This document shows, in pieces, positions 2,754-45,289 of a stretch of 64,000 nt of DNA. The translations under genes and the position numbers were made by a program. Below the pieces are notes generated by a model, which was not told where the DNA came from, ran no database searches, and saw only the letters and a list, made by a program, of their open reading frames with translations. How positions within the stretch are numbered: the stretch's first letter is position 1; every line of letters begins with the position of its first letter. This DNA is from an uncultured Desulfuromonadales bacterium. Lineage in GTDB: Bacteria > Desulfobacterota > Desulfuromonadia > Geobacterales > CAIOGM01. The stretch lies in NCBI GenBank assembly GCA_903929485.1, contig CAIYUY010000211.1:3770-67769 (forward strand). The letters are read 5' to 3'.

Positions 2754-3683
2754 TCACCTACAAACCTTGCCGTGGAGAGCCAGATCACTGGGCTCTTGAA
2801 TATCCTTCTGCTGAACCCCTTTTTCAGCAATATCGCGAGCCCTGCTACCGGTCGTCTTCAGTGTCTGGGCATCAAGCTCCATATAGGCAAACGTGTCTAT
2901 GCTTTTGTCGGCGCAGTTCAGCGCATTGGCGAAGAGGATGATATTTTCATCCCCCAGAAACCAGGCGGTATTGATCATTTTCCTGGATTCCGTCCCCCCG
3001 TCGTCGGGCGCCCGGTACAAGAGCACCTCGTTGTCATGGGTATAATAAGGAGTCCATCCCTTGGCGATGAACATTTTTATATTTTCAGCCGTCTGTTTCC
3101 GCGCACTCTCACGAGGATCATACTGCTGCGTTACCTGAACGGGAACGGGAATTGCCGGTTTTTGCGGTATCGCCATGCTTGCGGCCAGGGGTGCGGAAAC
3201 ATGCTTTTTCCCCTTGACGGCATACCTTGAGTTCAACTTGTGAAGCAAATAGGGAGACAATACACGTTTTTGTCTGGAAGTAACTACGTCCAGCAGAGAA
3301 GGAGATTTCATCTCGGCTTTGGCCGCAACAGTAGGATTAGGAACATAACCCCTTTTTGCGGCGGTTGAATTTGCGAAACGATGATCCGCTCCGGCGCCGG
3401 CGGGCTTCAGAGCGTTCTGACGTGACGCCGTCATGATCTTGTGCAGTTCTTTTTTATATGGTTCCTGCCCTGCCACCGATTTTTTGTATTGGCTCTTGTG
3501 CCCAGTGACCTCTTTTTTAGCAGGCATGCTGTACAGAAGAACGGAAACAGCTATGACTATAATTGTTCCGGCTGCGATCATATAGAGTTGAGCCTTGGTT
3601 GGTTTAATTTTCCATTTTTTCGGCGACGTACTCCCCTCATCATTCTGCGGTGCACTGTTTTCTTCCTCGTTGGTCTCTGGCAT
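2754..3683 (-). CDS. Hypothetical single-pass membrane protein (acidic N-terminus, one TM segment, Lys-rich linker, unknown C-terminal domain)
   Basis: The start MPETNEEEN at 3683 is preceded by GGAGGA at 8-nt spacing. The TM segment is LYMIAAGTIIVIAVSVLLY. I recognise no family. Confidence 0.55.
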   Translation of the reverse strand: MPETNEEENSAPQNDEGSTSPKKWKIKPTKAQLYMIAAGTIIVIAVSVLLYSMPAKKEVTGHKSQYKKSVAGQEPYKKELHKIMTASRQNALKPAGAGADHRFANSTAAKRGYVPNPTVAAKAEMKSPSLLDVVTSRQKRVLSPYLLHKLNSRYAVKGKKHVSAPLAASMAIPQKPAIPVPVQVTQQYDPRESARKQTAENIKMFIAKGWTPYYTHDNEVLLYRAPDDGGTESRKMINTAWFLGDENIILFANALNCADKSIDTFAYMELDAQTLKTTGSRARDIAEKGVQQKDIQEPSDLALHGKVCR

Positions 3684-5369: not shown

Positions 5370-5455
5370 AACACGTCTCCTTGTTTTCTGTTCAACAAAC
5401 AAAAACTCCAGCCATTATTACTATCTTCGGTTAAAAATCCAAACTCTTTAGCGTG

Positions 5456-5470
5456 ATCTTGTCTCCTCCG
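5456..5470. repeat. Direct repeat of the tRNA-Pro 3' end (candidate att remnant)
   Basis: atcttgtctcc at 5456-5466 is identical to tRNA-Pro positions 2165-2175. The continuation is tccg here versus ccg in the tRNA. The repeat sits at the GC-content transition. Confidence 0.45.
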
Positions 5471-5586
5471 GCGCCGGGCGACGGCAGTGGGCGCCAGCCG
5501 GTCACGACGACGTGCAGGAACAACTCTTACTTTTTCCAAAGGATGCCGTTCCCGCCAGGACAGGGAACAAAAGCTCCGGAGACGCG

Positions 5587-5618
5587 AAAATGGCGACCCC
5601 TTGCAATGCGGGTCGCCA
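5587..5618 (-). terminator. Rho-independent terminator of the trxA-tlpA-like operon
   Basis: On the minus strand: tggcgaccc-gcattgcaag-gggtcgcca followed by tttt. Confidence 0.65.
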
Positions 5619-5659
5619 CTGTTGTGACACTCGTGAAGCCAACTGACTACAACTACACG

Positions 5660-6184
5660 CTATTTCTCCGCCAATGCCGCCCTGACGGCGGAGTCGATGG
5701 CCTGTTCGCTCTCTTCCGACATTCCTTGGAACCTTTCCACGACGCGCCCTTTACGATTGATCAGAAAAAGAGTCGGCACCGAACGAATACCGAATGCTTC
5801 CTGCAGGGTATCATCCGCCATTGCCACCGGATACGTTATCTTCTTTTCGACGATGAACTCCTTCACAACCCGGTCCCCCGACTCGTCGATACTGAGACCC
5901 AGAACCTGAAATCCCTGCTTTCCGTACTTTTTATTCAGTCTGATGATGGCGGGGATGGATTCCCGGCAAGGGGAGCACCAAGTGGCAAAAAACTGCACAA
6001 GTAGCACACGACCGCCGTAATTAGCGCCGGTGATCCGTTGTCCGGAGGTGGAGACAACCAGCAACGGCGGCGCCTTCTGTCCCTTCTGAAGTCCCAAAGC
6101 CAGGGAAGGGAGCAAACAAGAGACGGCCAGCAAAACCGTTGCCGCCAGACGAAGCCGGCGATGAGAGATGGTGAAGCTCCTCAC
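5660..6184 (-). CDS. TlpA/ResA-type thiol:disulfide oxidoreductase (exported thioredoxin-fold protein)
   Basis: 174 aa with an N-terminal signal sequence, the redox motif FFATWCSPCRESIP, and a cis-Pro region GIRSVPTLFLI. Confidence 0.8.
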   Translation of the reverse strand: MRSFTISHRRLRLAATVLLAVSCLLPSLALGLQKGQKAPPLLVVSTSGQRITGANYGGRVLLVQFFATWCSPCRESIPAIIRLNKKYGKQGFQVLGLSIDESGDRVVKEFIVEKKITYPVAMADDTLQEAFGIRSVPTLFLINRKGRVVERFQGMSEESEQAIDSAVRAALAEK

Positions 6185-33157: not shown

Positions 33158-34597
33158 TCAGAGATACGGTGAGAACAATTTTGCCCCGCTGTCCCGGAGT
33201 TTTTCCGGAAGCGACCGTCCCGACAGTTCTCCGGGAAGGACCCGTCGAGACATGGTCAGCGCCTCCAGGAAATGAGCTTCCAGTTCCCCGCAAAAATCGG
33301 GATCGTAAAGTTCAAGATTCAGTTCGAAATTGAGACGCAGGCTGCGGGGGTCCAGATTGGCGGAACCGATGAGTCCCCAGACACCGTCCACAAGAAACAG
33401 CTTGGTATGGACGAAGGGGGGAGGATGGTAATAAATTTTGATGCCAAACCGGAGCAGTTCAGGAAGAAACGCCCGATTGGCCCAGTGGACAAAGAGGAGA
33501 TTGTTTTGTCGGGGCAGGATGATGGTGACATCAACCCCCCGCAGGGCGGCGGTGGCCAGGGCGGAAATCAGTGATCTCCCCGGAATAAGATAGGGGGTCA
33601 TGATTTGAACCCGCTCCCTGGCACAGGAAAGCGCCCCGATGATGATCCACTGTAGCTTCCGGTACTCCCGGTCGGGGCCATCGGCTATCCCCCTGACAGT
33701 AGAGTTCCCCATCGGCAGAAGCTCCGGGAAGCAGGCGGGATCGTCAAGAAACTCCCCGGTGGTAAAATACCAATCCTCAAGAAAGCTCTTCTGCAGGTCG
33801 GCCACCACCGGACCCGTCACGCTAAAATGAAGATCCACCACCGGTCGGGAAGCAGACTTAACCAGGTGCCGGTCGCTGATATTCATCCCCCCCGTAAAAG
33901 CCATCCGCCCGTCGATGATCAATAGTTTCCGGTGGTTGCGCAGATTAACGTAGATCCCCCTCACCAACGGCAGAAATCGCCCCACCCGGACCCCGGACCC
34001 CTTGAAAAGTCGCATGCCGCTGGGGAAGGAGTAGAGTTCACCCAGGCTGTCGATGAGCAATCGCACGGCAACGCCACGCCCCGCAGCCTCCCGGAGCTGC
34101 GCCGCAAACGCTTCCCCGGTCCGGTCATTGTCAAAGATATAACTGCTCAAGTGTACCGATTCCCGGGCGCCGGCGATGGCGGCCAGCATGGCGGGATAGG
34201 CCTCTTCGCCGTTTCGCAGAAGGGAGATACGGTTCCCCCCCAGAAGAAGCCCATGAGCCACCCGATCGGAGAGATTCCTCAGGGTCTCCAGGTGCCTCGC
34301 TTGGAGTGGCAGTTCCTTTGCTGCAAAAATCCCCGTGCGGTGGGCAATCTCGCCGTTCCCCAGTCGGCGACCGCTTTGGCGCCACTTGAGGGTCCGCCGG
34401 TGTATCCGGTTGGCCCCCAGGCTCCAGTAAAAAACCGCTCCCACCAAGGGAAGAGTCAGGCAGATGACCACCCAGACCAACGCCGACCGGGGGTCGCTCT
34501 TTCTCAGCAGGGCATGCCCCGCCGACCCCACCGCCACGATCAGGAGAGTAAGGACGATCATGATATGAAGGGTGTCGAACAGATGGTCCATGATCAT
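33158..34597 (-). CDS. cls: Cardiolipin synthase (PLD superfamily)
   Basis: 479 aa with N-terminal TM helices and two HKD motifs (NHRKLLIIDG...GGMNI and VHTKLFLVDG...GSANLD). It shares an ATGA overlap with the upstream PPTase gene. Confidence 0.88.
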   Translation of the reverse strand: MIMDHLFDTLHIMIVLTLLIVAVGSAGHALLRKSDPRSALVWVVICLTLPLVGAVFYWSLGANRIHRRTLKWRQSGRRLGNGEIAHRTGIFAAKELPLQARHLETLRNLSDRVAHGLLLGGNRISLLRNGEEAYPAMLAAIAGARESVHLSSYIFDNDRTGEAFAAQLREAAGRGVAVRLLIDSLGELYSFPSGMRLFKGSGVRVGRFLPLVRGIYVNLRNHRKLLIIDGRMAFTGGMNISDRHLVKSASRPVVDLHFSVTGPVVADLQKSFLEDWYFTTGEFLDDPACFPELLPMGNSTVRGIADGPDREYRKLQWIIIGALSCARERVQIMTPYLIPGRSLISALATAALRGVDVTIILPRQNNLLFVHWANRAFLPELLRFGIKIYYHPPPFVHTKLFLVDGVWGLIGSANLDPRSLRLNFELNLELYDPDFCGELEAHFLEALTMSRRVLPGELSGRSLPEKLRDSGAKLFSPYL

Positions 34598-35307
34598 ATC
34601 ACAGCGGCGCTCCCCGCGTAATTCGGGGGGAGCAGCAGATCATGGGAACCTGCCGAAACCGTCCCCGGTGGCTCCGGCCGACAAGCAGCATGAGAGTCTG
34701 TGGCAAAACCGGTCCCCCGCGCCTTAAGGGCGGCCTCCAAACGGCACCACTGCCGATAGAAAGCAGGGAGTTGCTCGGCCTGGGTCAGAGCAGCGATCCC
34801 ATCGCTTATCATCCGAGGAAAAAATTGTCGGGCGATGGGTTGCCACTCCATATCCGCTCCATACATTTCCAAATCAACCCCCACGGGACGGCGGGGGTGA
34901 AATCCCAACAGTATCAAGTCACCGGAATGGGCCACATTGAACTGTAGCGAAGAGGCCGTACAGGTCGGGTCGAGAAAGGGCTTGCCGTGAGGAGTCTGAA
35001 CGAACCTTACGGCGGCGGGAACAACCCCCAGGGGACGGGCCAGCAACAGCCGGAGCACCCCACGCCCCAGGAGGAGACAATCCCGATCCTCCTGCCGGCG
35101 CAGTCGGTAAAGCCTCCCTCTTTCTTCCGGCGACAACAGGGGAAGAAGGTCGCCGGCAATTTCAAGAGCCAGTTGTCGCTGAATCAACCAGATGGCGGGA
35201 GGAGCCTGTGGAGAGTAGTCCAGCCATCCGTCACCACCCCAGGGAAGATCAGGATGCCAGGGTCGGGGGGTCAGACAAGAATTCAGATTGCAGCACACCG
35301 TCTTCAT
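34594..35307 (-). CDS. 4'-phosphopantetheinyl transferase, Sfp type
   Basis: 237 aa with FNVAHSGDLILLGF...VGVDLE and WCRLEAALKARG. It shares an ATGA overlap with the NRPS stop codon. Confidence 0.85.
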   Translation of the reverse strand: MKTVCCNLNSCLTPRPWHPDLPWGGDGWLDYSPQAPPAIWLIQRQLALEIAGDLLPLLSPEERGRLYRLRRQEDRDCLLLGRGVLRLLLARPLGVVPAAVRFVQTPHGKPFLDPTCTASSLQFNVAHSGDLILLGFHPRRPVGVDLEMYGADMEWQPIARQFFPRMISDGIAALTQAEQLPAFYRQWCRLEAALKARGTGFATDSHAACRPEPPGTVSAGSHDLLLPPNYAGSAAVI

Positions 35308-38300
35308 TCTCCCGTCCCTGGATTTTCGTTTTCATGAAGAAGTTGCCGCAAAAAGGCCGCGAGAGGCTCCGCGCCATGGGATCTGTAATAATCATGATGG
35401 TTATCGAAAAGCCGATGAACTTTCACCCCGCGGCGGGCGTAGTAATACCAGAAGAGAAACATACGGCTCTTGGTCTTTGTGGTGGTAACAAGATTAAGTT
35501 CAAGATCAAGTCGAGGCGGCCTATAAAATGTGACAATAGTAGAGGTATGATCCATGACATGGGGCGAATCCTGGTGTGCAAATCTGGCATTGTTGATTGT
35601 TTCGATTTCCGGTGATTTCTTTGGTTTTCTCAAAAGAATCTTTGCATAGAAGAGCTGCGAAACCAAGCGCTTCTTCAGATAGGTAATTCTGCCCCCCTCG
35701 GGACGATGACGAAGTTTGTCTACATGATAAGAAACACGGCCCATCAAATAACTCCCCAATTCCAGCCACTCGTTGAAGTTGAGCCATTTGTGAATATTGG
35801 CGTTTGCATGGGTATCCAGTAGCGTCAGGAGTCCGATAGCGCCCCCCTGACGGAGAAGATGATCGGCAACGGCGTAAGCAAGCCACCCCCCGACGGAACA
35901 GCCGACGAGATGATAAGGGCCGGTAGGCTGCAAGGAGCGAATCTGAGCGGCATAATGCTCTGCCATGGCATCAATGGACGTGTGACGTGGTGTCTTGCCA
36001 TCCAGTCCGACAGCCTGAAAACCATAAACGGGTCGCTCCGGCGCAAGATTCTGCGCCATGTGAACAGACCAGTAGGCATCACCTCCCCACCCATGGAGAA
36101 CGAAAAGGGGCGTTTTTTCTCCTTTCGGTTGAAGCGGCACGAGGGAACTCCAGGCAGGAGTTTCCTCATCATTACGAAGCAGCACAGCCAGAGTGGCGAC
36201 GGTCTGGGCATGAAAGAAAGAGGCAATGGGTACCTTATGCCCCACAAGATGATCTATTTCAGAGGCGAGACGAGCGGCAATGAGGGAATGACCTCCCATT
36301 GAAAAGAAATTGGCGTGGATACCGAAGTCGGATTGTCCCAGTGCCTTATGCCAGAGTTGAAGCAACTGCTGCTCCAGGAGATTCCGAGGCGTTGCATGAA
36401 GATCTCCGGCCGAATTGTCGCTATCGGTAAAAGCCTCCGGTTCCGGTAGCCCCTTACGGTCTATTTTGCCGTTGGGTGTGAGCGGCAGAGCTTCCGGAAA
36501 GACAAAAGCCGCGGGAAGCATGTAGTCGGGAAGCGTCACCTTCAGGAAGGCGCGCAGCTCACCGGGAGCGGGCCGATCTGCTGCGGGAACCACATAGGCG
36601 ACAAGACGCTTCTCTCCGTCGGCATCGCTTCCGGCACTGACCAGAGCCTCCCGAACCCCCGGATGAGCCGCCAGCGCTGCTTCGATCTCCCCCAGCTCGA
36701 TGCGAAAGCCCCTGATCTTCACCTGATGATCCATCCGGCCAAGAAACTCAATGTTCCCGTCTGACCGATACCGGGCCAGATCCCCGCTTTTATAGAGCCG
36801 GGCGCCGGGAACGTCACTGAAGGGATCGGAAATGAATTTTTCCGCGGTAAGTTCCGGCCGGTTCAGATAACCCCTGGCTAGTCCGGCGCCGCCGATATGC
36901 AGCTCTCCGGGAACGCCCATGGGGGTCGATTCAAGATGACTGTCGAGGATGTAGAGCTGTGTATTCGCTACGGGACGACCGATAGTGACAACAGCATGAT
37001 CCGTATCTTGCTCAGTTACCAGGTAACAACTCGACCAGATGGTCGTTTCGGTAGGACCGTAGAGATTCCAGAGCGATGCCCCTCGAAAAAGCATCTTTCG
37101 TGCCAGGAATCCGGACAAAGCCTCCCCACCCACCAACATTTTCAAATTTGATTTCCCGGACCACCCGGCATCAATAAGCATCAGCCAAGTGGCCGGTGTT
37201 GCCTGAAATACAGTGATATCATATTTATCCAGTAGCGTGATCAGAGCCACCGGATCCACAGCATCAAAACTCCGAGTCACCACAATACGTCCGCCGCAGA
37301 TCAAGGGGAGATAGATCTCCAGACCAAAAATATCAAAGCTGACGGTGGTCACGGCCAGAAGCGAATCCTTCCTGTTGAAGCCTGGATTCCGTTGCATTGT
37401 CTGGAGAAAATTGAAAAGTCCGCCATGTCCTACCGCCACCCCCTTAGGTTTTCCGGTTGAACCGGAAGTATAAATGATGTAGGCAAGGTGCTCCGGAGCA
37501 ACCATCTGGTGAGGGTTCATCTCCGACTGACAAGCGATGTCCGTCCACTGGGTGTCCAGAGAAAGAGTATGTTCAACTTTCTGTGTCAGGCGATGGCGCA
37601 CCGTTTCCTGGGTAATCAGTATCCGGGCGCCAGAATCCTCCAGCATGAACGAAAGGCGCGTTGACGGATATCCCGGATCCAGCGGCACATAGGCCCCCCC
37701 CGCCTTGAGAACTGCCAAGAGCGCCACGATCATCTCCGGGGAGCGTTCCAGGGCAATGGCAACCGGAGCATCGGGAACGACCCCCAGCCGTATCAACGTG
37801 TGCGCCAGCTGATTGGCACGGGCATTGAGTTCTCGGTAGGTGAGCCTTTCATCCTGGAAGAGCACTGCTACTGCGTCCGGACTCTCTTCAACCTGCGCCT
37901 CGAAGAGTTGATGCACGCATTTTTCCGGTAATGGCGCCGCCGTGTTATTCCAGTCAACCAGGAGTCGCCGCCTCTCCTCTGAAGGGAGAATAGCAAGAAG
38001 AGAGACCTGTTGTTCAGGATTGGCGACAACCGAACGGAGCAGTTCCTGAAACTGCCCACCCAGCCGCTGGATTGTCTCTTCATCGAAAAGATCGAGAGCA
38101 TATTCCAGGGTAGCGGTCAGTCCCCCATGGAGTTCGGTGACGGATAGCGTCAGATCGAACTTCGCCGTCACCCCCTCGCTTTCGGCAAGGGTGACATCCA
38201 GTCCGGGGAGGAGCGGCGCCGCAGGATCGGCATTCTGGAGAATGAACATGATCTGGAAGAGCGGGGCATGGGCGAGGTTCCGCGTAACCCCCAGTGACTC

Positions 38301-41300
38301 CACCAGTATTTCGAAGGGAAGCTCCTGGTGCGCATAGGCATCCAGACAAGTATGCCGGAGACGGGCCAGAAGTTCCAGGAACGGGGGATTACCGCTCAGG
38401 TCGGCGCGCAAGGCCAGGGTGTTGACGAAGAAACCGATGAGCGGCTCCACCGCGCTCTGAGTCCGGTTCGCCACCGGGGAACCGATAACCAGATCCTCTT
38501 CACCGCTGTAGCGGGAAAGCAGGATGGCCCAAGCCGCCAGGAGCGTCATGAACAGGGTCGCTCCGGAGCGACGCCCCAAATCATGCAGTTCGGCGGTGAG
38601 GAGAGCATCCACGGCAAAGGCGACTGTTCCCCCCTGATGACTCTGCCGGGGCGGACGGGGTCGATCGGTGGGAAGATTGAGACAATCCGGTGCGCTGGCC
38701 AGGTGATTTAGCCAGTACTCCAGCCGGTACCGCAGACGTTCCCCGGTAAGCCAGCCACGCTGCCAGACGGCATAGTCGGCGTACTGAATCTCCAGTTCAG
38801 GAAGAGGTGACGGCTTACCTTCCCGGAAGGCGCCATAGAGGATGGCCAACTCCCGAAACAGAATGTCCATGGACCAACCGTCGGCGGCCACGTGCTGCAG
38901 GGTCAGGAGGAGCGTCCAGGCGGACTCCCCACGCCGCAGCAGACGGAGACGCAGCGGCTCATCCCGGGCAAGGTCGAAGGGGTCGGAGGCTTCCCGGCGA
39001 GCCAACTCACGGGCTTCCATCTCCGGATCGACACTTTCCCGCAGATCCACAATCGGCAGGGTTATGACGCTCGCCGGGGAGACAAGTTGTATCGGCTCAT
39101 CTCCCCGCAGCAGCAGACGGCTGCGCAACACTTCGTGACGACGGATGATTTCCGAGAAGGCGCGGTTCAGCGCCTCAAGATCCAGGGGTCCGGCCAGTTC
39201 CAGCACGAGGGGAATGTTGTAGGTGGAACTGGGCCCTTCCAACTGATGAAGAAACCAGAGCCGCTGCTGGGCAAAGGAGAGCGGCGGCTCCCGGTCCCGT
39301 GGGGCCGGGGAAATGAGCCGCGCAGCGGCTTCTTCCTGCCCATGAGCGTCGCCTTGTTGAATGATATGAATCCAATCAGCAAGTCCGGCCACGGTGGGGA
39401 ATTCAAAGAGCCGGCGCACCGGTATATCCATCTCCAACGCGTCACGCAACCGGGAGGTGAGCCGGGTAGCCAGCAGGGAGTGCCCCCCCAGTTCGAAAAA
39501 GTTGTCGTGAATACCGATACCCGGTTGATGCAGAAGGGTCGCCCAGAGGCCGACAAGAACCTCTTCCAGCGGGTTGCGGGGGGCGGTTCCGGTGGAGGCC
39601 GAGGTACAGGCGTCAGGTTCCGGCAGGGCCTTCCTGTCGATCTTGCCGTTGGGGGTAAGCGGCAGCGCCTTCAGGAAGACAAAAGCCGCGGGGAGCATGT
39701 AGTCGGGAAGCGTCATCTTCAGGAAGGTGCGCAGCTCTCCGGGAGCGGGCCGATCTGCAACGGGAACTACATAGGCGACAAGACGCTTCTCCCCGTCGGC
39801 ATCGCTTCCGGTAATGACCAGAACCTCCCGAACCCCCGGATGAGCCGCCAGCGCCGCTTCGATCTCCCCCAACTCGATGCGAAAGCCCCTGATCTTTACC
39901 TGATGATCCATCCGCCCCAGAAACTCGATGTTCCCGTCGGGACGATAGCGGACCAGGTCGCCGGTTTTGTAGAGACGGGCGCCGGGAGCGTCACTGAAGG
40001 GATCGGGAATGAATTTTTCCGCGGTGAGTTCCGGCCGGTTCAGATAACCCCGGGCGAGCCCGGCGCCGCCGATATGCAGCTCTCCGGGAACACCCAGAGG
40101 AACGGGACGAAGGGAGCCATCCAGGATGAAAAGCGTCGTGTTGCTGATCGGCTTACCTATGGGCACCTGTCCCTCAATGACGCTGGAACCGTTCATGAGG
40201 TGGCAGCAAGCAAACGTGGTGCTCTCGGTGGGACCATAGCCGTTGATGAAGCGGTGCCCGGGAGGAAGAATCTCGAGAAACTTCCGGACGTGGGGAGCGG
40301 AAAGAAAATCACCCCCGGCGAGTATCTGGCGGACGCCGGTCAGACTCTGGAGCTCATGGTCAACCATCAGGTGAAAGAGAGATGCGGTAAGCCAGAGGAT
40401 GGTGATGCCCCGGCTGCCGATGAATGCTCCCAACTCTTCCGGAGTCGGTATCCGGGGAGAAAAGACGACGAGACCGGCGCCGTTGAGCAACGCTCCCCAG
40501 ATCTCAAAGGTGGCGGCATCAAAAGAGATGGGCGCAAACTGGAGGAACAGGTCTGAAGGGGTGATTACGACATAATTGGTATTTTTCACGAGGCGTACGA
40601 CTGAACGATGTTGGATCAGACACCCCTTGGGTTTCCCGGTGGAACCGGAGGTATAGATGATGTACGCGAGGTTCTCCGGAGCCACGGGCTGGTTGGGGTT
40701 ACTCTCCGGTTGTCGGGCTATGGCGGCCGCTTCACTGTCCAGACAAAGAGTATGCTCCACGCTCCGCGGCAGGCGGAGAAAGAGCGATTCCCGGGTGATG
40801 AGGATTCGTGCCCCGGAATCTTCCAGCATGAAGGCCAGACGTTTTGTGGGATACTCCGGGTCCAGCGGGACATACGTGCCTCCGGACTTGAGGATCGCCA
40901 GGAGGGCGACAATCATCTCCGAGGAGCGCTCCAGTGCTATGGCCACCGGCGCATCCGGGCCGACTCCCCTTTCGATAAGGGCATGAGCCAGCTGATTGGC
41001 CCGGACGTTCAGTTCCGCATAGGTGAGGCTTTCATCCTGGTAGAGCACCGCTACCGCGTCCGGACTCTCCTCCACTTGTGCTTCAAAGAGTTGATGTACG
41101 CATTTTTCCGGCAGCGGCGCCGCCGTGTCATTCCAGTCAACAAGGAGGCGTTTCCTCTCCTGGGGAGGGAGAATATCAAGGAGGGAGACCTGTTGTTCGG
41201 GGTTGGCGACAACCGAACGGAGCAGCTTCCGGAACTGTCCCCCCAACCGCTCAATTGTCTCCTCATTAAAGAGATCCGTGGCGTATTCCAGCGTGGCGGC

Positions 41301-44300
41301 CAGTGCGCCGTCTCCTTCGGTAATGGAAAGTGTCAGGTCGAACTTTGCCGTCGTGCTCTCGCTCTTGGCAAGAGTGATGTCCAGTCCGTCAAGGAGCGGC
41401 GCTTCCTCATCGGTATTCTGGAGAACGAACATGACCTGGAAGAGTGGCCCGTGGGCAAGATTGCGCGTTACCCCCAGTGATTCGACAAGTATCTCGAAGG
41501 GAAGTTCCTGGTGGGCATACGCTTCCAGACAGGTATGCCGAATACGGGCCATAAGTTCCAGGAACGAGGGATTACCGCTCAGGTCGGCGCGCAAGGCCAA
41601 GGTGTTGACGAAGAAACCGATAAGCGGCTCCACCGCGCTCTGAGTCCGGTTCGCCACCGGGGAACCGATGATGAGGTCATCTTCTCCACTGTAACGTGAA
41701 AGAAGGGTGGCCCAAGCCGCCAGGAGCGTCATGAACAGGGTCGCGCCGGAGCGACGTCCCAATTCATGAAGGTCGCTGGTGAGAGCCGAATCAACGGTAA
41801 AGGAAATGACTCCCCCTCGGTGACTTTGCCGTGACGGACGTGGCCGGTCAGTGGAGAGATTCAGGCAATCCGGAGCGCCGGCCAGGTGGCTTTGCCAGTA
41901 GTGAAGCTGCCGGTTTCGACGTTCCCCGGTGAGCCAGCCACGCTGCCAGACAGCATAGTCTGCGTACTGAATTCCAAGTTCAGGAAGAGGTGACGGCTTG
42001 CCTTCCCGAAAGGCGCCATAGAGGATAGCCAACTCCCGAAACAGGATGGCAAGGGACCAGCCGTCTGCGGCCACGTGCTGCAGGGTCAGGAGAAGCGTCC
42101 AGGCGGACTCCCCACGCCTCAGCAGACGGAGACGCAGCGGCTCATCCCGGGCAAGGTCGAAGGGGTCGGCTGCTTCCCGGCGAGCCAACTCATGGGCTTC
42201 CATCTCCGGATCGACGCTTTCCCGCAGATCCACAACCGGCAGGGTCACGACACCGGCCGGGGAGACAAGTTGTATCGGCTCATCTCCCCGCAGCAGCAGA
42301 CGGCTGCGCAACACTTCGTGACGACGGATGATTTCCGAGAAGGCGCGGTTCAGCGCTTCAAGATCAAGGGGTCCGGCCAGTTCCAGCACGAGGGGTATGT
42401 TGTAGGTGGAACTTGGCCCTTCCAGCTGATGAAGAAACCACAAGCGTTGCTGGGCAAAGGAGAGCGGCAGCTCCCGGTCCCGTGGGGCCGGGGGAATGAG
42501 CCGCGCAGCGGCTTCTTCCTGCCCATGGGCGTCGCCTTGTTGAAGGGTGCGGATCTGGCGAGCAAATTCGGCCACGGTGGGAGCTTCAAAGAGCCGGCGT
42601 ACCGGGATATCCATCTCCAGCTCGTCACGCAGCCGGGAGGTGAGCCGGATAGCCAGCAGGGAATGCCCGCCATGTTCAAAAAAATTATCGTGAATGCCGA
42701 TACCGGGTTGATGCAGGAGGGTCGCCCAGAGGCAGACAAGAACCTCTTCCAGCGGGTCGCGGGGGGCGGCTCCGGAGGAGGTGCAGGCGTCAGGTTCAGG
42801 CAGGGCCTTGCGATCGACTTTACCGTTGGGGGTAAGCGGCAGCGCCGGAAGGAATACCCAGGCTGCGGGGAGCATGTAGTCGGGAAGCGAGCGTTGCAGG
42901 AAGGTGCGCAGCTCCCCGGGAGCGGGCTGCTCTGCAACGGAAACGACATAGGCGACCAGACACTTCTCCCCGTCGGCATCGCTTCCGGCAATGACCAGGG
43001 CCTCACGAACCCCCGGATGAGCCGCCAGCGCCGCATCGATCTCTCCCAGCTCGATGCGAAAGCCTCTGATTTTAACCTGGTGGTCCATTCGTCCGAGAAA
43101 CTCGATGTTACCATCAGGGCGATAGCGGGCCAGGTCGCCGGTTTTATAGAGACGGGCGCCGGGAACGTCGCTGAAGGGATCGGGAATGAATTTTTCGGCG
43201 GTAAGTTCCGGCCGGTTCAGATAACCACGGGCGAGCCCCGCGCCGCCGATGTGCAGTTCTCCGGGGACGCCGATGGGAGTCGGCTGGAGATGGCCGTCAA
43301 GGATATAGATTCGGGTGTTGGCGATGGGGCGGCCGATGGATGGCGCTTCACCCGGAGAGCGCATTTTGAACGTAGTATAAACAGTATCTTCCGATGGGCC
43401 GTACAGATCGTAAACCTTCCGGATCGTCGGAACGCCATAGATGCGATCTGCAAGATTCATGGTGAGCGGCTCGCCGGCTAGATTCACCACCCGCACGCCG
43501 GCAGGGATTCCGCCTTGAACCAGCAGGGTGTTCATTGCGGAAGGGACGGTATTGATCAGCGTCACCATGTCACGACATTTAATCGTCAGTAATTCCAGAA
43601 CGTTTTCAACCAGAATCACGGCGCCCCCAACCGAAAGAGGAAGAAAGAGTTCGTAAACAGATAGATCAAAACAGATGGAAGTTCCAGAAAGAACGCACCG
43701 CAATTCGTCCACGGTCCATACCGTACGCGCCCATTGCAGTAACGCAGTCGGGCCACGGTGTTCAATGGCGACTCCCTTGGGTTTCCCGGTGGAACCGGAG
43801 GTATAGATGATGTAGGCAAGATTCTCCGGAGCCACGGGCTGGTTGGGGTTACTCTCCGGTTGCCGGGCAATGGCTGCCGCATCAGTATCATAACAAAGAA
43901 TACGTTCCACGATCCGTGGCAGGCGATGAGACAGCGATTCCTGGGTGATGAGGATTCGCGCCCCGGAATCTTCCAGCATGAAAACCAAGCGTGTTGTCGG
44001 ATACTCAAGATCCAGCGGAACATAAGCGCCCCCTGCCTTGAGGACCGCAAGAAGCGCGACGATCATCTCCAGGGAGCGTTCGAGGGCGATGGCCACCGGA
44101 GCGTCAGGAACAACTCCCAAACCGATCAGGGCATGCGCCAGTTGATTGGCCCGAGCGTTCAGCTCCCCATAGGTGAGGCGTTCGTCCTGGAAGAGCACTG
44201 CGGTTGCATCAGGGCTCTCTTCGACCTGCGCCTCGAAGAGTTGATGCACACATTTATCCGGTAACGGTGTCGCCGTGTCGTTCCACTGGACAAGCATCAG

Positions 44301-44516
44301 CCGCATTTCTTCCGGAGACGGAAAAGTAGGGATTGCTGAATCGGGACAAAGAGTTTCTTCCGGAGACGGAACTGTAGGAATGTCAGGATCGGGACAAATA
44401 GTTTCTTCCGGAGACGGAACTGTAGGAATGTCAGGATCGGGACAAATAGTTTGTTCCAACGACGGTTCGCTTGGAACCAAGAGGAGAGGCTGTTGCCGCG
44501 GCGCTGCTTGTTTCAT
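35304..44516 (-). CDS. Non-ribosomal peptide synthetase, three modules: A-T-C-A-T-C-A-T-TE
   Basis: 3070 aa. Three A domains each carry LAYIIYTSGSTGKPKG, GELHIGGAGLARGY, Y K[TS]GDL, KIRGFRIELGEI and NGK[VI]DRK. Three carrier domains carry GGHSL. Two C domains carry LSFAQQRLWFL...QHVAADGWS. The C-terminal TE carries LHGWGGD...GCSVGG. Approximate map on the minus strand (nt, within roughly 30 nt): A1 44255-42801, T1 42761-42552, C1 42476-41163, A2 41105-39624, T2 39578-39369, C2 39293-37980, A3 37922-36450, T3 36395-36180, TE 36119-35307. Confidence 0.93.
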   Translation of the reverse strand: MKQAAPRQQPLLLVPSEPSLEQTICPDPDIPTVPSPEETICPDPDIPTVPSPEETLCPDSAIPTFPSPEEMRLMLVQWNDTATPLPDKCVHQLFEAQVEESPDATAVLFQDERLTYGELNARANQLAHALIGLGVVPDAPVAIALERSLEMIVALLAVLKAGGAYVPLDLEYPTTRLVFMLEDSGARILITQESLSHRLPRIVERILCYDTDAAAIARQPESNPNQPVAPENLAYIIYTSGSTGKPKGVAIEHRGPTALLQWARTVWTVDELRCVLSGTSICFDLSVYELFLPLSVGGAVILVENVLELLTIKCRDMVTLINTVPSAMNTLLVQGGIPAGVRVVNLAGEPLTMNLADRIYGVPTIRKVYDLYGPSEDTVYTTFKMRSPGEAPSIGRPIANTRIYILDGHLQPTPIGVPGELHIGGAGLARGYLNRPELTAEKFIPDPFSDVPGARLYKTGDLARYRPDGNIEFLGRMDHQVKIRGFRIELGEIDAALAAHPGVREALVIAGSDADGEKCLVAYVVSVAEQPAPGELRTFLQRSLPDYMLPAAWVFLPALPLTPNGKVDRKALPEPDACTSSGAAPRDPLEEVLVCLWATLLHQPGIGIHDNFFEHGGHSLLAIRLTSRLRDELEMDIPVRRLFEAPTVAEFARQIRTLQQGDAHGQEEAAARLIPPAPRDRELPLSFAQQRLWFLHQLEGPSSTYNIPLVLELAGPLDLEALNRAFSEIIRRHEVLRSRLLLRGDEPIQLVSPAGVVTLPVVDLRESVDPEMEAHELARREAADPFDLARDEPLRLRLLRRGESAWTLLLTLQHVAADGWSLAILFRELAILYGAFREGKPSPLPELGIQYADYAVWQRGWLTGERRNRQLHYWQSHLAGAPDCLNLSTDRPRPSRQSHRGGVISFTVDSALTSDLHELGRRSGATLFMTLLAAWATLLSRYSGEDDLIIGSPVANRTQSAVEPLIGFFVNTLALRADLSGNPSFLELMARIRHTCLEAYAHQELPFEILVESLGVTRNLAHGPLFQVMFVLQNTDEEAPLLDGLDITLAKSESTTAKFDLTLSITEGDGALAATLEYATDLFNEETIERLGGQFRKLLRSVVANPEQQVSLLDILPPQERKRLLVDWNDTAAPLPEKCVHQLFEAQVEESPDAVAVLYQDESLTYAELNVRANQLAHALIERGVGPDAPVAIALERSSEMIVALLAILKSGGTYVPLDPEYPTKRLAFMLEDSGARILITRESLFLRLPRSVEHTLCLDSEAAAIARQPESNPNQPVAPENLAYIIYTSGSTGKPKGCLIQHRSVVRLVKNTNYVVITPSDLFLQFAPISFDAATFEIWGALLNGAGLVVFSPRIPTPEELGAFIGSRGITILWLTASLFHLMVDHELQSLTGVRQILAGGDFLSAPHVRKFLEILPPGHRFINGYGPTESTTFACCHLMNGSSVIEGQVPIGKPISNTTLFILDGSLRPVPLGVPGELHIGGAGLARGYLNRPELTAEKFIPDPFSDAPGARLYKTGDLVRYRPDGNIEFLGRMDHQVKIRGFRIELGEIEAALAAHPGVREVLVITGSDADGEKRLVAYVVPVADRPAPGELRTFLKMTLPDYMLPAAFVFLKALPLTPNGKIDRKALPEPDACTSASTGTAPRNPLEEVLVGLWATLLHQPGIGIHDNFFELGGHSLLATRLTSRLRDALEMDIPVRRLFEFPTVAGLADWIHIIQQGDAHGQEEAAARLISPAPRDREPPLSFAQQRLWFLHQLEGPSSTYNIPLVLELAGPLDLEALNRAFSEIIRRHEVLRSRLLLRGDEPIQLVSPASVITLPIVDLRESVDPEMEARELARREASDPFDLARDEPLRLRLLRRGESAWTLLLTLQHVAADGWSMDILFRELAILYGAFREGKPSPLPELEIQYADYAVWQRGWLTGERLRYRLEYWLNHLASAPDCLNLPTDRPRPPRQSHQGGTVAFAVDALLTAELHDLGRRSGATLFMTLLAAWAILLSRYSGEEDLVIGSPVANRTQSAVEPLIGFFVNTLALRADLSGNPPFLELLARLRHTCLDAYAHQELPFEILVESLGVTRNLAHAPLFQIMFILQNADPAAPLLPGLDVTLAESEGVTAKFDLTLSVTELHGGLTATLEYALDLFDEETIQRLGGQFQELLRSVVANPEQQVSLLAILPSEERRRLLVDWNNTAAPLPEKCVHQLFEAQVEESPDAVAVLFQDERLTYRELNARANQLAHTLIRLGVVPDAPVAIALERSPEMIVALLAVLKAGGAYVPLDPGYPSTRLSFMLEDSGARILITQETVRHRLTQKVEHTLSLDTQWTDIACQSEMNPHQMVAPEHLAYIIYTSGSTGKPKGVAVGHGGLFNFLQTMQRNPGFNRKDSLLAVTTVSFDIFGLEIYLPLICGGRIVVTRSFDAVDPVALITLLDKYDITVFQATPATWLMLIDAGWSGKSNLKMLVGGEALSGFLARKMLFRGASLWNLYGPTETTIWSSCYLVTEQDTDHAVVTIGRPVANTQLYILDSHLESTPMGVPGELHIGGAGLARGYLNRPELTAEKFISDPFSDVPGARLYKSGDLARYRSDGNIEFLGRMDHQVKIRGFRIELGEIEAALAAHPGVREALVSAGSDADGEKRLVAYVVPAADRPAPGELRAFLKVTLPDYMLPAAFVFPEALPLTPNGKIDRKGLPEPEAFTDSDNSAGDLHATPRNLLEQQLLQLWHKALGQSDFGIHANFFSMGGHSLIAARLASEIDHLVGHKVPIASFFHAQTVATLAVLLRNDEETPAWSSLVPLQPKGEKTPLFVLHGWGGDAYWSVHMAQNLAPERPVYGFQAVGLDGKTPRHTSIDAMAEHYAAQIRSLQPTGPYHLVGCSVGGWLAYAVADHLLRQGGAIGLLTLLDTHANANIHKWLNFNEWLELGSYLMGRVSYHVDKLRHRPEGGRITYLKKRLVSQLFYAKILLRKPKKSPEIETINNARFAHQDSPHVMDHTSTIVTFYRPPRLDLELNLVTTTKTKSRMFLFWYYYARRGVKVHRLFDNHHDYYRSHGAEPLAAFLRQLLHENENPGTGE
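44304..44447. repeat. 3 x 48-bp in-frame tandem repeat at the 5' end of the NRPS gene
   Basis: It encodes ICPDPDIPTVPSPEET twice, then the diverged copy LCPDSAIPTFPSPEEM. gtttcttccggagacgg recurs at 44353 and 44401. Confidence 0.85.
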
Positions 44517-44719: not shown

Positions 44720-45265
44720 CTACCCTTCCCCCTTCTCCACCCAGCACTGGGCCAGAGCCAGATGCTTGAGAAAAGCGGCGGCGAAACGGAAACCGGCGCG
44801 GGGGACCGGGACGTTAATAAAATCATTACCCCGGCCAACGAAGAGGGCGAATTTACGCTCTCCCGGCGCCGTCCAGTAGGACTCGATCCCCACTTCGGTC
44901 TGTACCTTACCGGCGGAACTCTCGTAGACATGGGGAGGAAGACGGTAGGAAACACTGGTTTTTGCGCCGGAGCTTTTTACCTTGAAGTGATTGGCCTCGT
45001 ACTCCTGGGGAGAAACTCCCGGGTTCAGCAGCATCTCCATGGCCCACGCCAGATCATGGGCCTCGGACGGCTCGCTGACGAAGCGGATCTGGGTCGGCTT
45101 GTCAGTGGAACCGGGGGGCTTGAGGAGGAAGAAGCGGAACTGAACCCGCCCTTCGCTCCCCTCATGACCATGACCGTTCACCTGTTTCACCCCCGGCTGG
45201 AGTTCCAGTCCGCTGTGGGCCGCGTAAAAAATCTGCCTCACGGTACGCTCTGTCTTATCGGTCAT
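44720..45265 (-). CDS. Hypothetical protein (181 aa), no recognised family
   Basis: The ATG at 45265 is preceded by GGAGG at 8-nt spacing. The ORF is uninterrupted and lies between scpB and the NRPS gene on the same strand. Confidence 0.55.
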   Translation of the reverse strand: MTDKTERTVRQIFYAAHSGLELQPGVKQVNGHGHEGSEGRVQFRFFLLKPPGSTDKPTQIRFVSEPSEAHDLAWAMEMLLNPGVSPQEYEANHFKVKSSGAKTSVSYRLPPHVYESSAGKVQTEVGIESYWTAPGERKFALFVGRGNDFINVPVPRAGFRFAAAFLKHLALAQCWVEKGEG

Positions 45266-45289
45266 GACGAACACCTCCGTATTTAAAAC

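Follow-up and report, generated by a model that had tools for sequence, protein, structure and literature searches.

The delta-(L-alpha-aminoadipyl)-L-cysteinyl-D-valine (ACV) synthetase is the classic trimodular nonribosomal peptide synthetase (NRPS), an enzyme that hydrolyses its tripeptide to a free, linear form. The same three-module plan, in which the first module consists of an adenylation (A) and a carrier (T) domain and lacks a starter condensation (C) domain, each later module opens with a C domain and a thioesterase (TE) closes the chain, recurs in an NRPS encoded on the minus strand of contig CAIYUY010000211.1 from an uncultured bacterium, in the 64,000-nucleotide stretch that was analysed as a whole and is referred to here as the window. 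The ACV synthetase has an epimerization (E) domain before the TE, activates aminoadipate, Cys and Val and sits in a beta-lactam cluster, whereas the NRPS in the window has no E domain, is predicted to activate Ala, Val and Gly and has a 4'-phosphopantetheinyl transferase (PPTase) as its only dedicated neighbour; the likeness is one of layout rather than of demonstrated orthology. The locus encodes an intact trimodular NRPS that, together with its own PPTase, probably makes linear L-Ala-L-Val-Gly. This supports and sharpens the X-Val-Gly tripeptide that had been proposed for the locus in an earlier note made by reading the DNA alone, by virtue of the specificity codes, the specificity cores and the type of the C domains. 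The NRPS is an ordinary, uncharacterised (orphan) example of a well-understood enzyme class.

In the proposed route, module 1 (A-T) would load L-alanine, module 2 (C-A-T) would add L-valine and module 3 (C-A-T) would add glycine. The tripeptidyl chain would then pass to the TE serine, from which hydrolysis, the simplest mode of release, would free linear L-Ala-L-Val-Gly, and the Sfp-type PPTase of the same operon would be the activating enzyme of the NRPS. The domain order, the codes, the catalytic residues and their reproducibility among assemblies are read directly from the DNA; the substrates, the configuration and the release chemistry are inferred.

The minus-strand open reading frame (ORF) 35304-44516, which contains the span of the three A domains (36450-44255), is unbroken over 9.2 kb (Table 1). 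Pfam detects in the 3070-aa protein three AMP-binding domains, each with an AMP-binding_C domain, two Condensation, three PP-binding and one Thioesterase domain; the AMP-binding, PP-binding and Condensation matches are all far above the Pfam cut-offs. With repeated A-T(-C) modules on one polypeptide, the protein is a type I modular NRPS (linear, type A), and the GGHS motif is found in all three T domains, as is the Lys at position 517 in all three A domains. No E, methyltransferase (MT), heterocyclization (Cy), reductase or oxidase domain is detected in the NRPS by Pfam. A hidden E, MT or Cy domain was considered and is ruled out by Pfam together with the module lengths: an inserted domain has no room because the module units are 1050 and 1061 aa long and the A domains ∼500 aa, and an E or a Cy domain would add further Condensation-family matches, yet there are only two. 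The initial description of the protein as lacking E, MT and Cy domains and ending in a TE is thereby borne out.

The specificity codes were read from a MAFFT multiple alignment of the three A domains with GrsA, at positions 235, 236, 239, 278, 299, 301, 322, 330, 331 and 517. The Phe-activating domain of GrsA, used as the reference, gave DAWTIAAICK in this alignment, which confirms its register. The codes are DLYNNALVYK for the A domain of module 1 (A1), DAFWLGGTFK for that of module 2 (A2) and DILQLGLIWK for that of module 3 (A3), letter for letter those extracted by hand in the earlier note. Pairwise MAFFT alignments were dropped for this purpose: positions 278, 299 and 301 were misplaced in them, and the multiple alignment was therefore used throughout. 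Codes of other sequences were read after adding these to the fixed multiple alignment, which, as a control, recovered the textbook codes DAWTIAAICK, DFWNIGMVHK, DLTKVGHVGK, DVWHFSLVDK and DAFFLGVTFK from unrelated loci. All three codes of the NRPS are unchanged in two further assemblies of the same population (L035 and L036).

The codes of A2 and A3 are identical at all 10 positions to the commonest Val and Gly codes, respectively, of characterised pathways and so do not reflect chance resemblance. A compendium published in 2025, which covers 2051 A domains of characterised pathways (PMC12283262, supplement Tables S4-S7), gives DAFWLGGTFK as Val(13), with 19 domains, and as N-methyl-Val in two more (TubC and VioD), and has no entry for it under Ile; the code also stands for Val in malacidin MlcM (PMC9113097). 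DILQLGLIWK, entered there as Gly(8), accounts for 28 domains, more than any other Gly code listed (PMC12283262). The assignment of module 2 to the Val class and of module 3 to the canonical Gly code, both made beforehand, are thus exact matches. The agreement extends beyond the ten code residues: among ∼250 A domains from the loci compared, each of the three specificity cores clusters, over its whole length of ∼165 aa, with domains of the same code. The A2 core is 50-58% identical to other DAFWLGGTFK domains, and the A3 core is 45-55% identical to DILQ[LI]G[LMV][IV]WK domains. Given the codes and the similarity of the cores, Ala, Val and Gly are the most likely substrates.

The code of A1, DLYNNALVYK, has no entry in the compendium. 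The four listed codes that are one substitution away are all Ala codes (PMC12283262): DLYNNALTYK (73 domains), DLFNNALVYK (3 domains: BraB, FbnO and ThfB), DLYNNALIYK (HepA/RzmA) and DLYNNGLVYK. A1 is thus within one substitution of characterised members of the DL[FYW]NNAL[TVI]YK Ala class, and the association of DL[FY]NNALTYK with Ala, which had been made in the earlier note, is correct according to the compendium. The main Ala code family varies at positions 239 and 330 (PMC12283262, text), and these are the two positions at which the A1 code differs from that of module 2 of McyA from the microcystin synthetase (McyA2). McyA2 (8jbr) is by far the best match of the A1 core in the PDB (172 bits, with all others at or below 61), with 56% identity over ∼160 aa (172-181 bits), and both belong to the same short FDLSV[FY]E-type subfamily; the McyA2 code read from its alignment with the A1 core is DLFNNALTY, that is, with F instead of Y at 239 and T instead of V at 330. 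In a hydroxylamine-release assay, McyA2 was most active on L-Ala, and both L-Ala and ATP were present when it was crystallised (bioRxiv 10.1101/2023.11.13.566838). The likeness does not extend to the rest of the module: McyA2, unlike module 1 here, serves in elongation within a hybrid of polyketide synthase and NRPS and has an E domain behind it, and its C domain is a poor match (89 bits) to the C domains of this NRPS.

The presence of Ala at position 1 of the peptide is highly probable on these comparisons, and the initial proposal of 'Ala or other small residue' for module 1 can be narrowed to Ala given the four neighbouring codes and McyA2 as the closest core. The alternative, in which Gly, Ser, Cys or 2-aminobutyrate takes the place of Ala as the small residue of module 1 and a different X-Val-Gly peptide results, draws on the lack of the exact code in the compendium, on the related code DIFNNALIYK (XabAB), which accepts Gly and Ala (PMC12283262), on Cys codes such as DLYNLALVWK, which match A1 at 8 of the 10 positions, and on the Thr-to-Val replacement at position 330, which strips a polar group from the floor of the pocket. 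This replacement, however, is isosteric, both Phe and Tyr occur at position 239 of Ala codes, and the four one-substitution codes are uniformly assigned to Ala. Furthermore, the A1 core as a whole is 52-56% identical to metagenomic DL[FY]NNALTYK domains, compared with at most 80 bits for the next-best of the other classes sampled among the ∼250 A domains. For Cys in particular, the Cys-activating A domain of PchE in the PDB falls below the threshold for the A1 core, and the NRPS has no Cy domain. A non-Ala module 1 therefore appears rather improbable.

The exchange of specificity subdomains between NRPS A domains is known from the hormaomycin and microcystin synthetases, and the three A domains in the window resemble these in combining close flanks with a diverged segment between the core motifs A3 and A6. 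Outside A3-A6, the three domains share 79-91% protein identity and differ at 21-58% of the four-fold degenerate sites, whereas between these motifs the identity drops to 25-29% and the four-fold sites differ at 61-82%, which is near saturation. By this comparison, each A domain is a mosaic in which closely related flanks enclose a core of ancient divergence. Such a mosaic could have originated in either of two ways: a scaffold was duplicated and its cores were then exchanged, or the flanks were homogenised by gene conversion, with selection keeping the cores distinct. Either direction of events is conceivable for the window, in which respect it differs from the hormaomycin and microcystin cases.

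The two C domains are 86% identical to each other. Ranked against solved structures in the PDB, they score highest with TycC6 (286 bits) and the fuscachelin PCP-C (276 bits), and much lower with SrfA-C (146 bits), McyB1 (137 bits), TycB1 (107 bits), the CDA starter C domain (77 bits) and Cy domains (at most 65 bits). TycC6 and the fuscachelin domain are of the LCL type and SrfA-C, McyB1 and TycB1 of the DCL type; the motifs read from the sequence (SFAQQRLWFL, RHEVLRSRL, YADYAVWQ and IGFFVNTLALR) are LCL-type motifs. Both C domains thus look like the LCL type, a subtype that is assigned here from the ranking of bit scores rather than from a formal subtype classification. The C-domain type supports the L configuration of the residues, and because the C domains are LCL-like and an E domain is missing, L-Ala-L-Val-Gly is the supported product, in agreement with the all-L peptide predicted at the outset. 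Both C domains have QHVAADG as their active-site motif, in which the catalytic second His of HHxxxDG is retained and the first His is replaced by Gln, a change that is assumed to be tolerated.

The Pfam Thioesterase model covers only the first half of the TE, the lid and the C-terminal half being divergent. Nevertheless, in an alignment with 11 homologues, the full 275-aa region is conserved, and Ser2874 (in GCSVG), Asp2901 and His3040 are invariant. The best PDB match is the skyllamycin TE Skyxy-TE (7crn), over the first 106 residues only, so that the closest solved relative, as judged from this N-terminal match, is a bifunctional cyclising TE. EntF is the NCBIfam model that partially matches the T-TE region best, at a score far short of its cut-off and with the T domain included in the match. 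The TE sequence does not separate hydrolysis from cyclo-oligomerisation. Release by hydrolysis to the linear tripeptide is favoured because of the analogy with the ACV synthetase.

With the same assembly line and the same substrates, an iterative TE would ligate a second Ala-Val-Gly unit to the first and cyclise the product to cyclo-(Ala-Val-Gly)2 or a higher oligomer. A ring of three residues would be strained, and known TEs acting on very short chains often oligomerise them, as in the biosynthesis of gramicidin S, enterobactin and valinomycin; moreover, Skyxy-TE cyclises and EntF has an iterative TE. The likeness to Skyxy-TE and EntF, however, is limited to the conserved N-terminal half, no sequence feature is known that tells iterative from hydrolytic TEs, and the ACV synthetase, with an equal number of modules, merely hydrolyses its tripeptide. 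Both a linear and a self-condensed product had been named in the earlier note; we consider the iterative variant unlikely and retain hydrolysis to linear L-Ala-L-Val-Gly as the favoured release.

Outside the specificity cores, the modules are 80-95% identical in nucleotide sequence, which raises the question of whether the three-module order is a misassembly of near-identical repeats, such that the true number or order of modules differs. Many assemblies indeed break inside the gene, as expected of repeats, and the differences between assemblies are concentrated in the repeated T and C segments. This explanation is, however, extremely improbable because the assemblies L035 (ENA) and L036 (GCA_903958335.1), which come from other samples, are collinear with the whole NRPS gene at 99.3-99.5% identity, so that three assemblies agree end to end; exact repeats inside the gene reach at most 101 nt, below both the k=141 given in related contig names and typical read length; the frame is intact throughout; and a distant homologue, L034, has an equal layout. 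The window, L035 and L036 differ at 72 alignment columns, every one of which lies in a repeated T or C segment and outside the specificity cores. These columns form clusters at nucleotides 1807-1839, 2302-2303, 3018-3326 and 5445-5857 of the gene, counted from the first ATG (window ∼38660-42710), a tight arrangement that suggests either gene conversion between modules in the population or mixing of paralogous reads in assembly.

A search of a large protein collection with the T-TE region as the query yielded a closest TE with 62% identity, and a scan of species-representative genomes yielded no close orthologue, the best match having 53% identity. The distant homologue L034 (GCA_963852995.1; 40-45% identity) is frameshifted and consists of A-T-C-A-T-C-A-T-TE followed by a PPTase gene, with codes for Val at position 1 and a Gly-like code at position 3. 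When metagenomes were scanned with the TE alignment, this TE clade was frequently seen to terminate synthetases of one to three modules and to have a PPTase gene behind it; the code of the final A domain varies, being mostly the Val code DAFWLGGTFK and, in a few cases, a Gly, Thr or Pro code. Short metagenomic NRPSs such as L034, L049, L050, L055 and L058 form a family with the NRPS described here, with 27-62% identity in the T-TE region, an invariant triad in the aligned homologues and the PPTase gene directly downstream, as in the window; they differ in the number of modules, from one to three, and include no characterised member. Among the metagenomic loci L046-L125, L093 has codes for Ala-Val-Asn and L056 for Ala-Val, and no locus with the code series Ala-Val-Gly was found outside this population. 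Trimodular A-T-C-A-T-C-A-T-TE synthetases are also encoded in three Nitrospira metagenome-assembled genomes (L001, L002 and L008); in these, the first A domain is split by an insertion between about model positions 180 and 315, and the codes are DGTVIAEVWK at position 2 and DILQLGMIWK (Gly) at position 3.

Several of the above observations weigh against linear L-Ala-L-Val-Gly as the product: the exact A1 code is missing from the compendium and a related code accepts Gly along with Ala, the first His of the C-domain motif is replaced in both C domains, and the nearest solved TE cyclises while the TE sequence itself is neutral as to the mode of release. To these should be added that codes indicate in vitro preference rather than product, and that no tailoring gene adjoins the NRPS. 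Transporter, MbtH-like and regulator genes are likewise absent next to it.

The PPTase has the Sfp-type two-domain layout, AASDHPPT_N followed by ACPS, in about 230 aa. The NCBIfam equivalog models for HetI and AcpT both match it below their cut-offs, and hence it is not considered an orthologue of either. The next gene downstream encodes cardiolipin synthase, a housekeeping lipid gene that seems to share a transcript with the NRPS and PPTase genes. This PLD-family gene was also evaluated as a possible tailoring enzyme and rejected, given that it passes the cardiolipin synthase cut-off and is not kept beside the L034 NRPS. The surroundings of the operon are of a housekeeping nature as well: within ∼15 kb, MetH, MTHFR, LigA and AsmA/YhdP are encoded on one side, and ScpA, ScpB, an M50 peptidase, a rhomboid protease, AccA, DnaE and UvrC on the other side. 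The 184-aa ORF directly upstream of the NRPS gene has no match in Pfam or NCBIfam. The only Rfam matches over the window are two tRNAs, neither a riboswitch nor a leader being detected close to the operon, and a scan for promoters and terminators gave counts at the chance level; one promoter-like site, itself of chance level, ends 3 nt upstream of the first ATG of the NRPS gene. The segment 45288-45368, at the scpB 3' end and in the intergenic region upstream of the 184-aa ORF, contains runs of a 7-nt repeat (GGTGAAC / GGGTGAA on the minus strand) as well as 22 nt that are duplicated perfectly.

The 5' end of the NRPS gene can be drawn in two ways. Gene callers in other assemblies start the protein at M74 (ATG at 44295-44297), which gives 2997 aa, and the 2997-aa calls in L035 and L036 sit on sequence identical to that of the window at the 5' end. 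The 73 residues between the first ATG and M74 correspond to three copies of a 48-nt repeat. A look-up of the exact 3070-aa protein gave no match because gene callers begin at M74. The choice between M1 and M74 has no effect on the product prediction.

Table 1. Features of the NRPS operon and its immediate surroundings in the window (aa numbering from the first ATG of the NRPS gene)
Feature	Position	Strand	Description
Cardiolipin synthase gene	33158-34597	minus	TIGR04265, 323 vs cut-off 290 bits; overlaps PPTase stop by 4 nt
Sfp/HetI-like 4'-phosphopantetheinyl transferase	34594-35307	minus	Pfam AASDHPPT_N (PF22624) and ACPS (PF01648); start overlaps NRPS stop
NRPS gene	35304-44516	minus	3070 aa from first ATG; A-T-C-A-T-C-A-T-TE; from ORF list, translation and Pfam
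Thioesterase domain	35307-36131	minus	aa 2796-3070; Ser2874 at 35895-35897, Asp2901 at 35814-35816, His3040 at 35397-35399
Carrier (T) domain 3	36162-36386	minus	Pfam PP-binding; Ser2744 at 36285-36287
A domain, module 3	36438-37943	minus	aa 2192-2693; core aa 2360-2533 = 36918-37439; DILQLGLIWK; predicted Gly
Condensation domain, module 3	37959-39296	minus	aa 1741-2186; LCL-like; His1875 at 38892-38894
Carrier (T) domain 2	39357-39581	minus	Pfam PP-binding; Ser1680 at 39477-39479
A domain, module 2	39615-41126	minus	aa 1131-1634; core aa 1299-1474 = 40095-40622; DAFWLGGTFK; predicted L-Val
Condensation domain, module 2	41142-42476	minus	aa 681-1125; LCL-like; QHVAADG, catalytic His814 at 42075-42077
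Carrier (T) domain 1	42537-42761	minus	Pfam PP-binding; Ser619 in GGHS at 42660-42662, phosphopantetheine attachment
A domain, module 1	42792-44276	minus	aa 81-575; core aa 249-415 = 43272-43772; DLYNNALVYK; predicted L-Ala
48-nt tandem repeat	44306-44457	minus	3.2 copies, 91% matches; encodes CPDPDIPTVPSPEET repeats if first ATG used
184-aa ORF	44720-45274	minus	GGAGG ribosome-binding site; directly upstream of NRPS gene; called as a gene in other assemblies

The UvrC encoded in the window is 62-66% identical to Geobacteraceae proteins, and the AsmA/YhdP protein points to a diderm host. On the evidence of the one marker gene, the host is probably an uncultured relative of Geobacteraceae. The literature searched for Geobacter together with NRPS contained no description of an NRPS product from this group.

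The three A domains provide a natural example of the A3-A6 subdomain boundaries that engineers try to exploit. If the prediction holds, the NRPS and its PPTase would constitute a minimal two-gene system that could be expressed directly to give a defined tripeptide; its source is an uncultured bacterium of fresh water, with Geobacteraceae as the probable closest named relatives. A broader possibility, and quite a long shot, is that the NRPS-PPTase pair is a trait of this freshwater lineage, chromosomally fixed among core genes, and that the TE clade has an unusual mode of release, such as iterative cyclo-oligomerisation or transfer to another acceptor. If true, very small peptides that serve the physiology of their producers would form a widespread class that is as yet undescribed.

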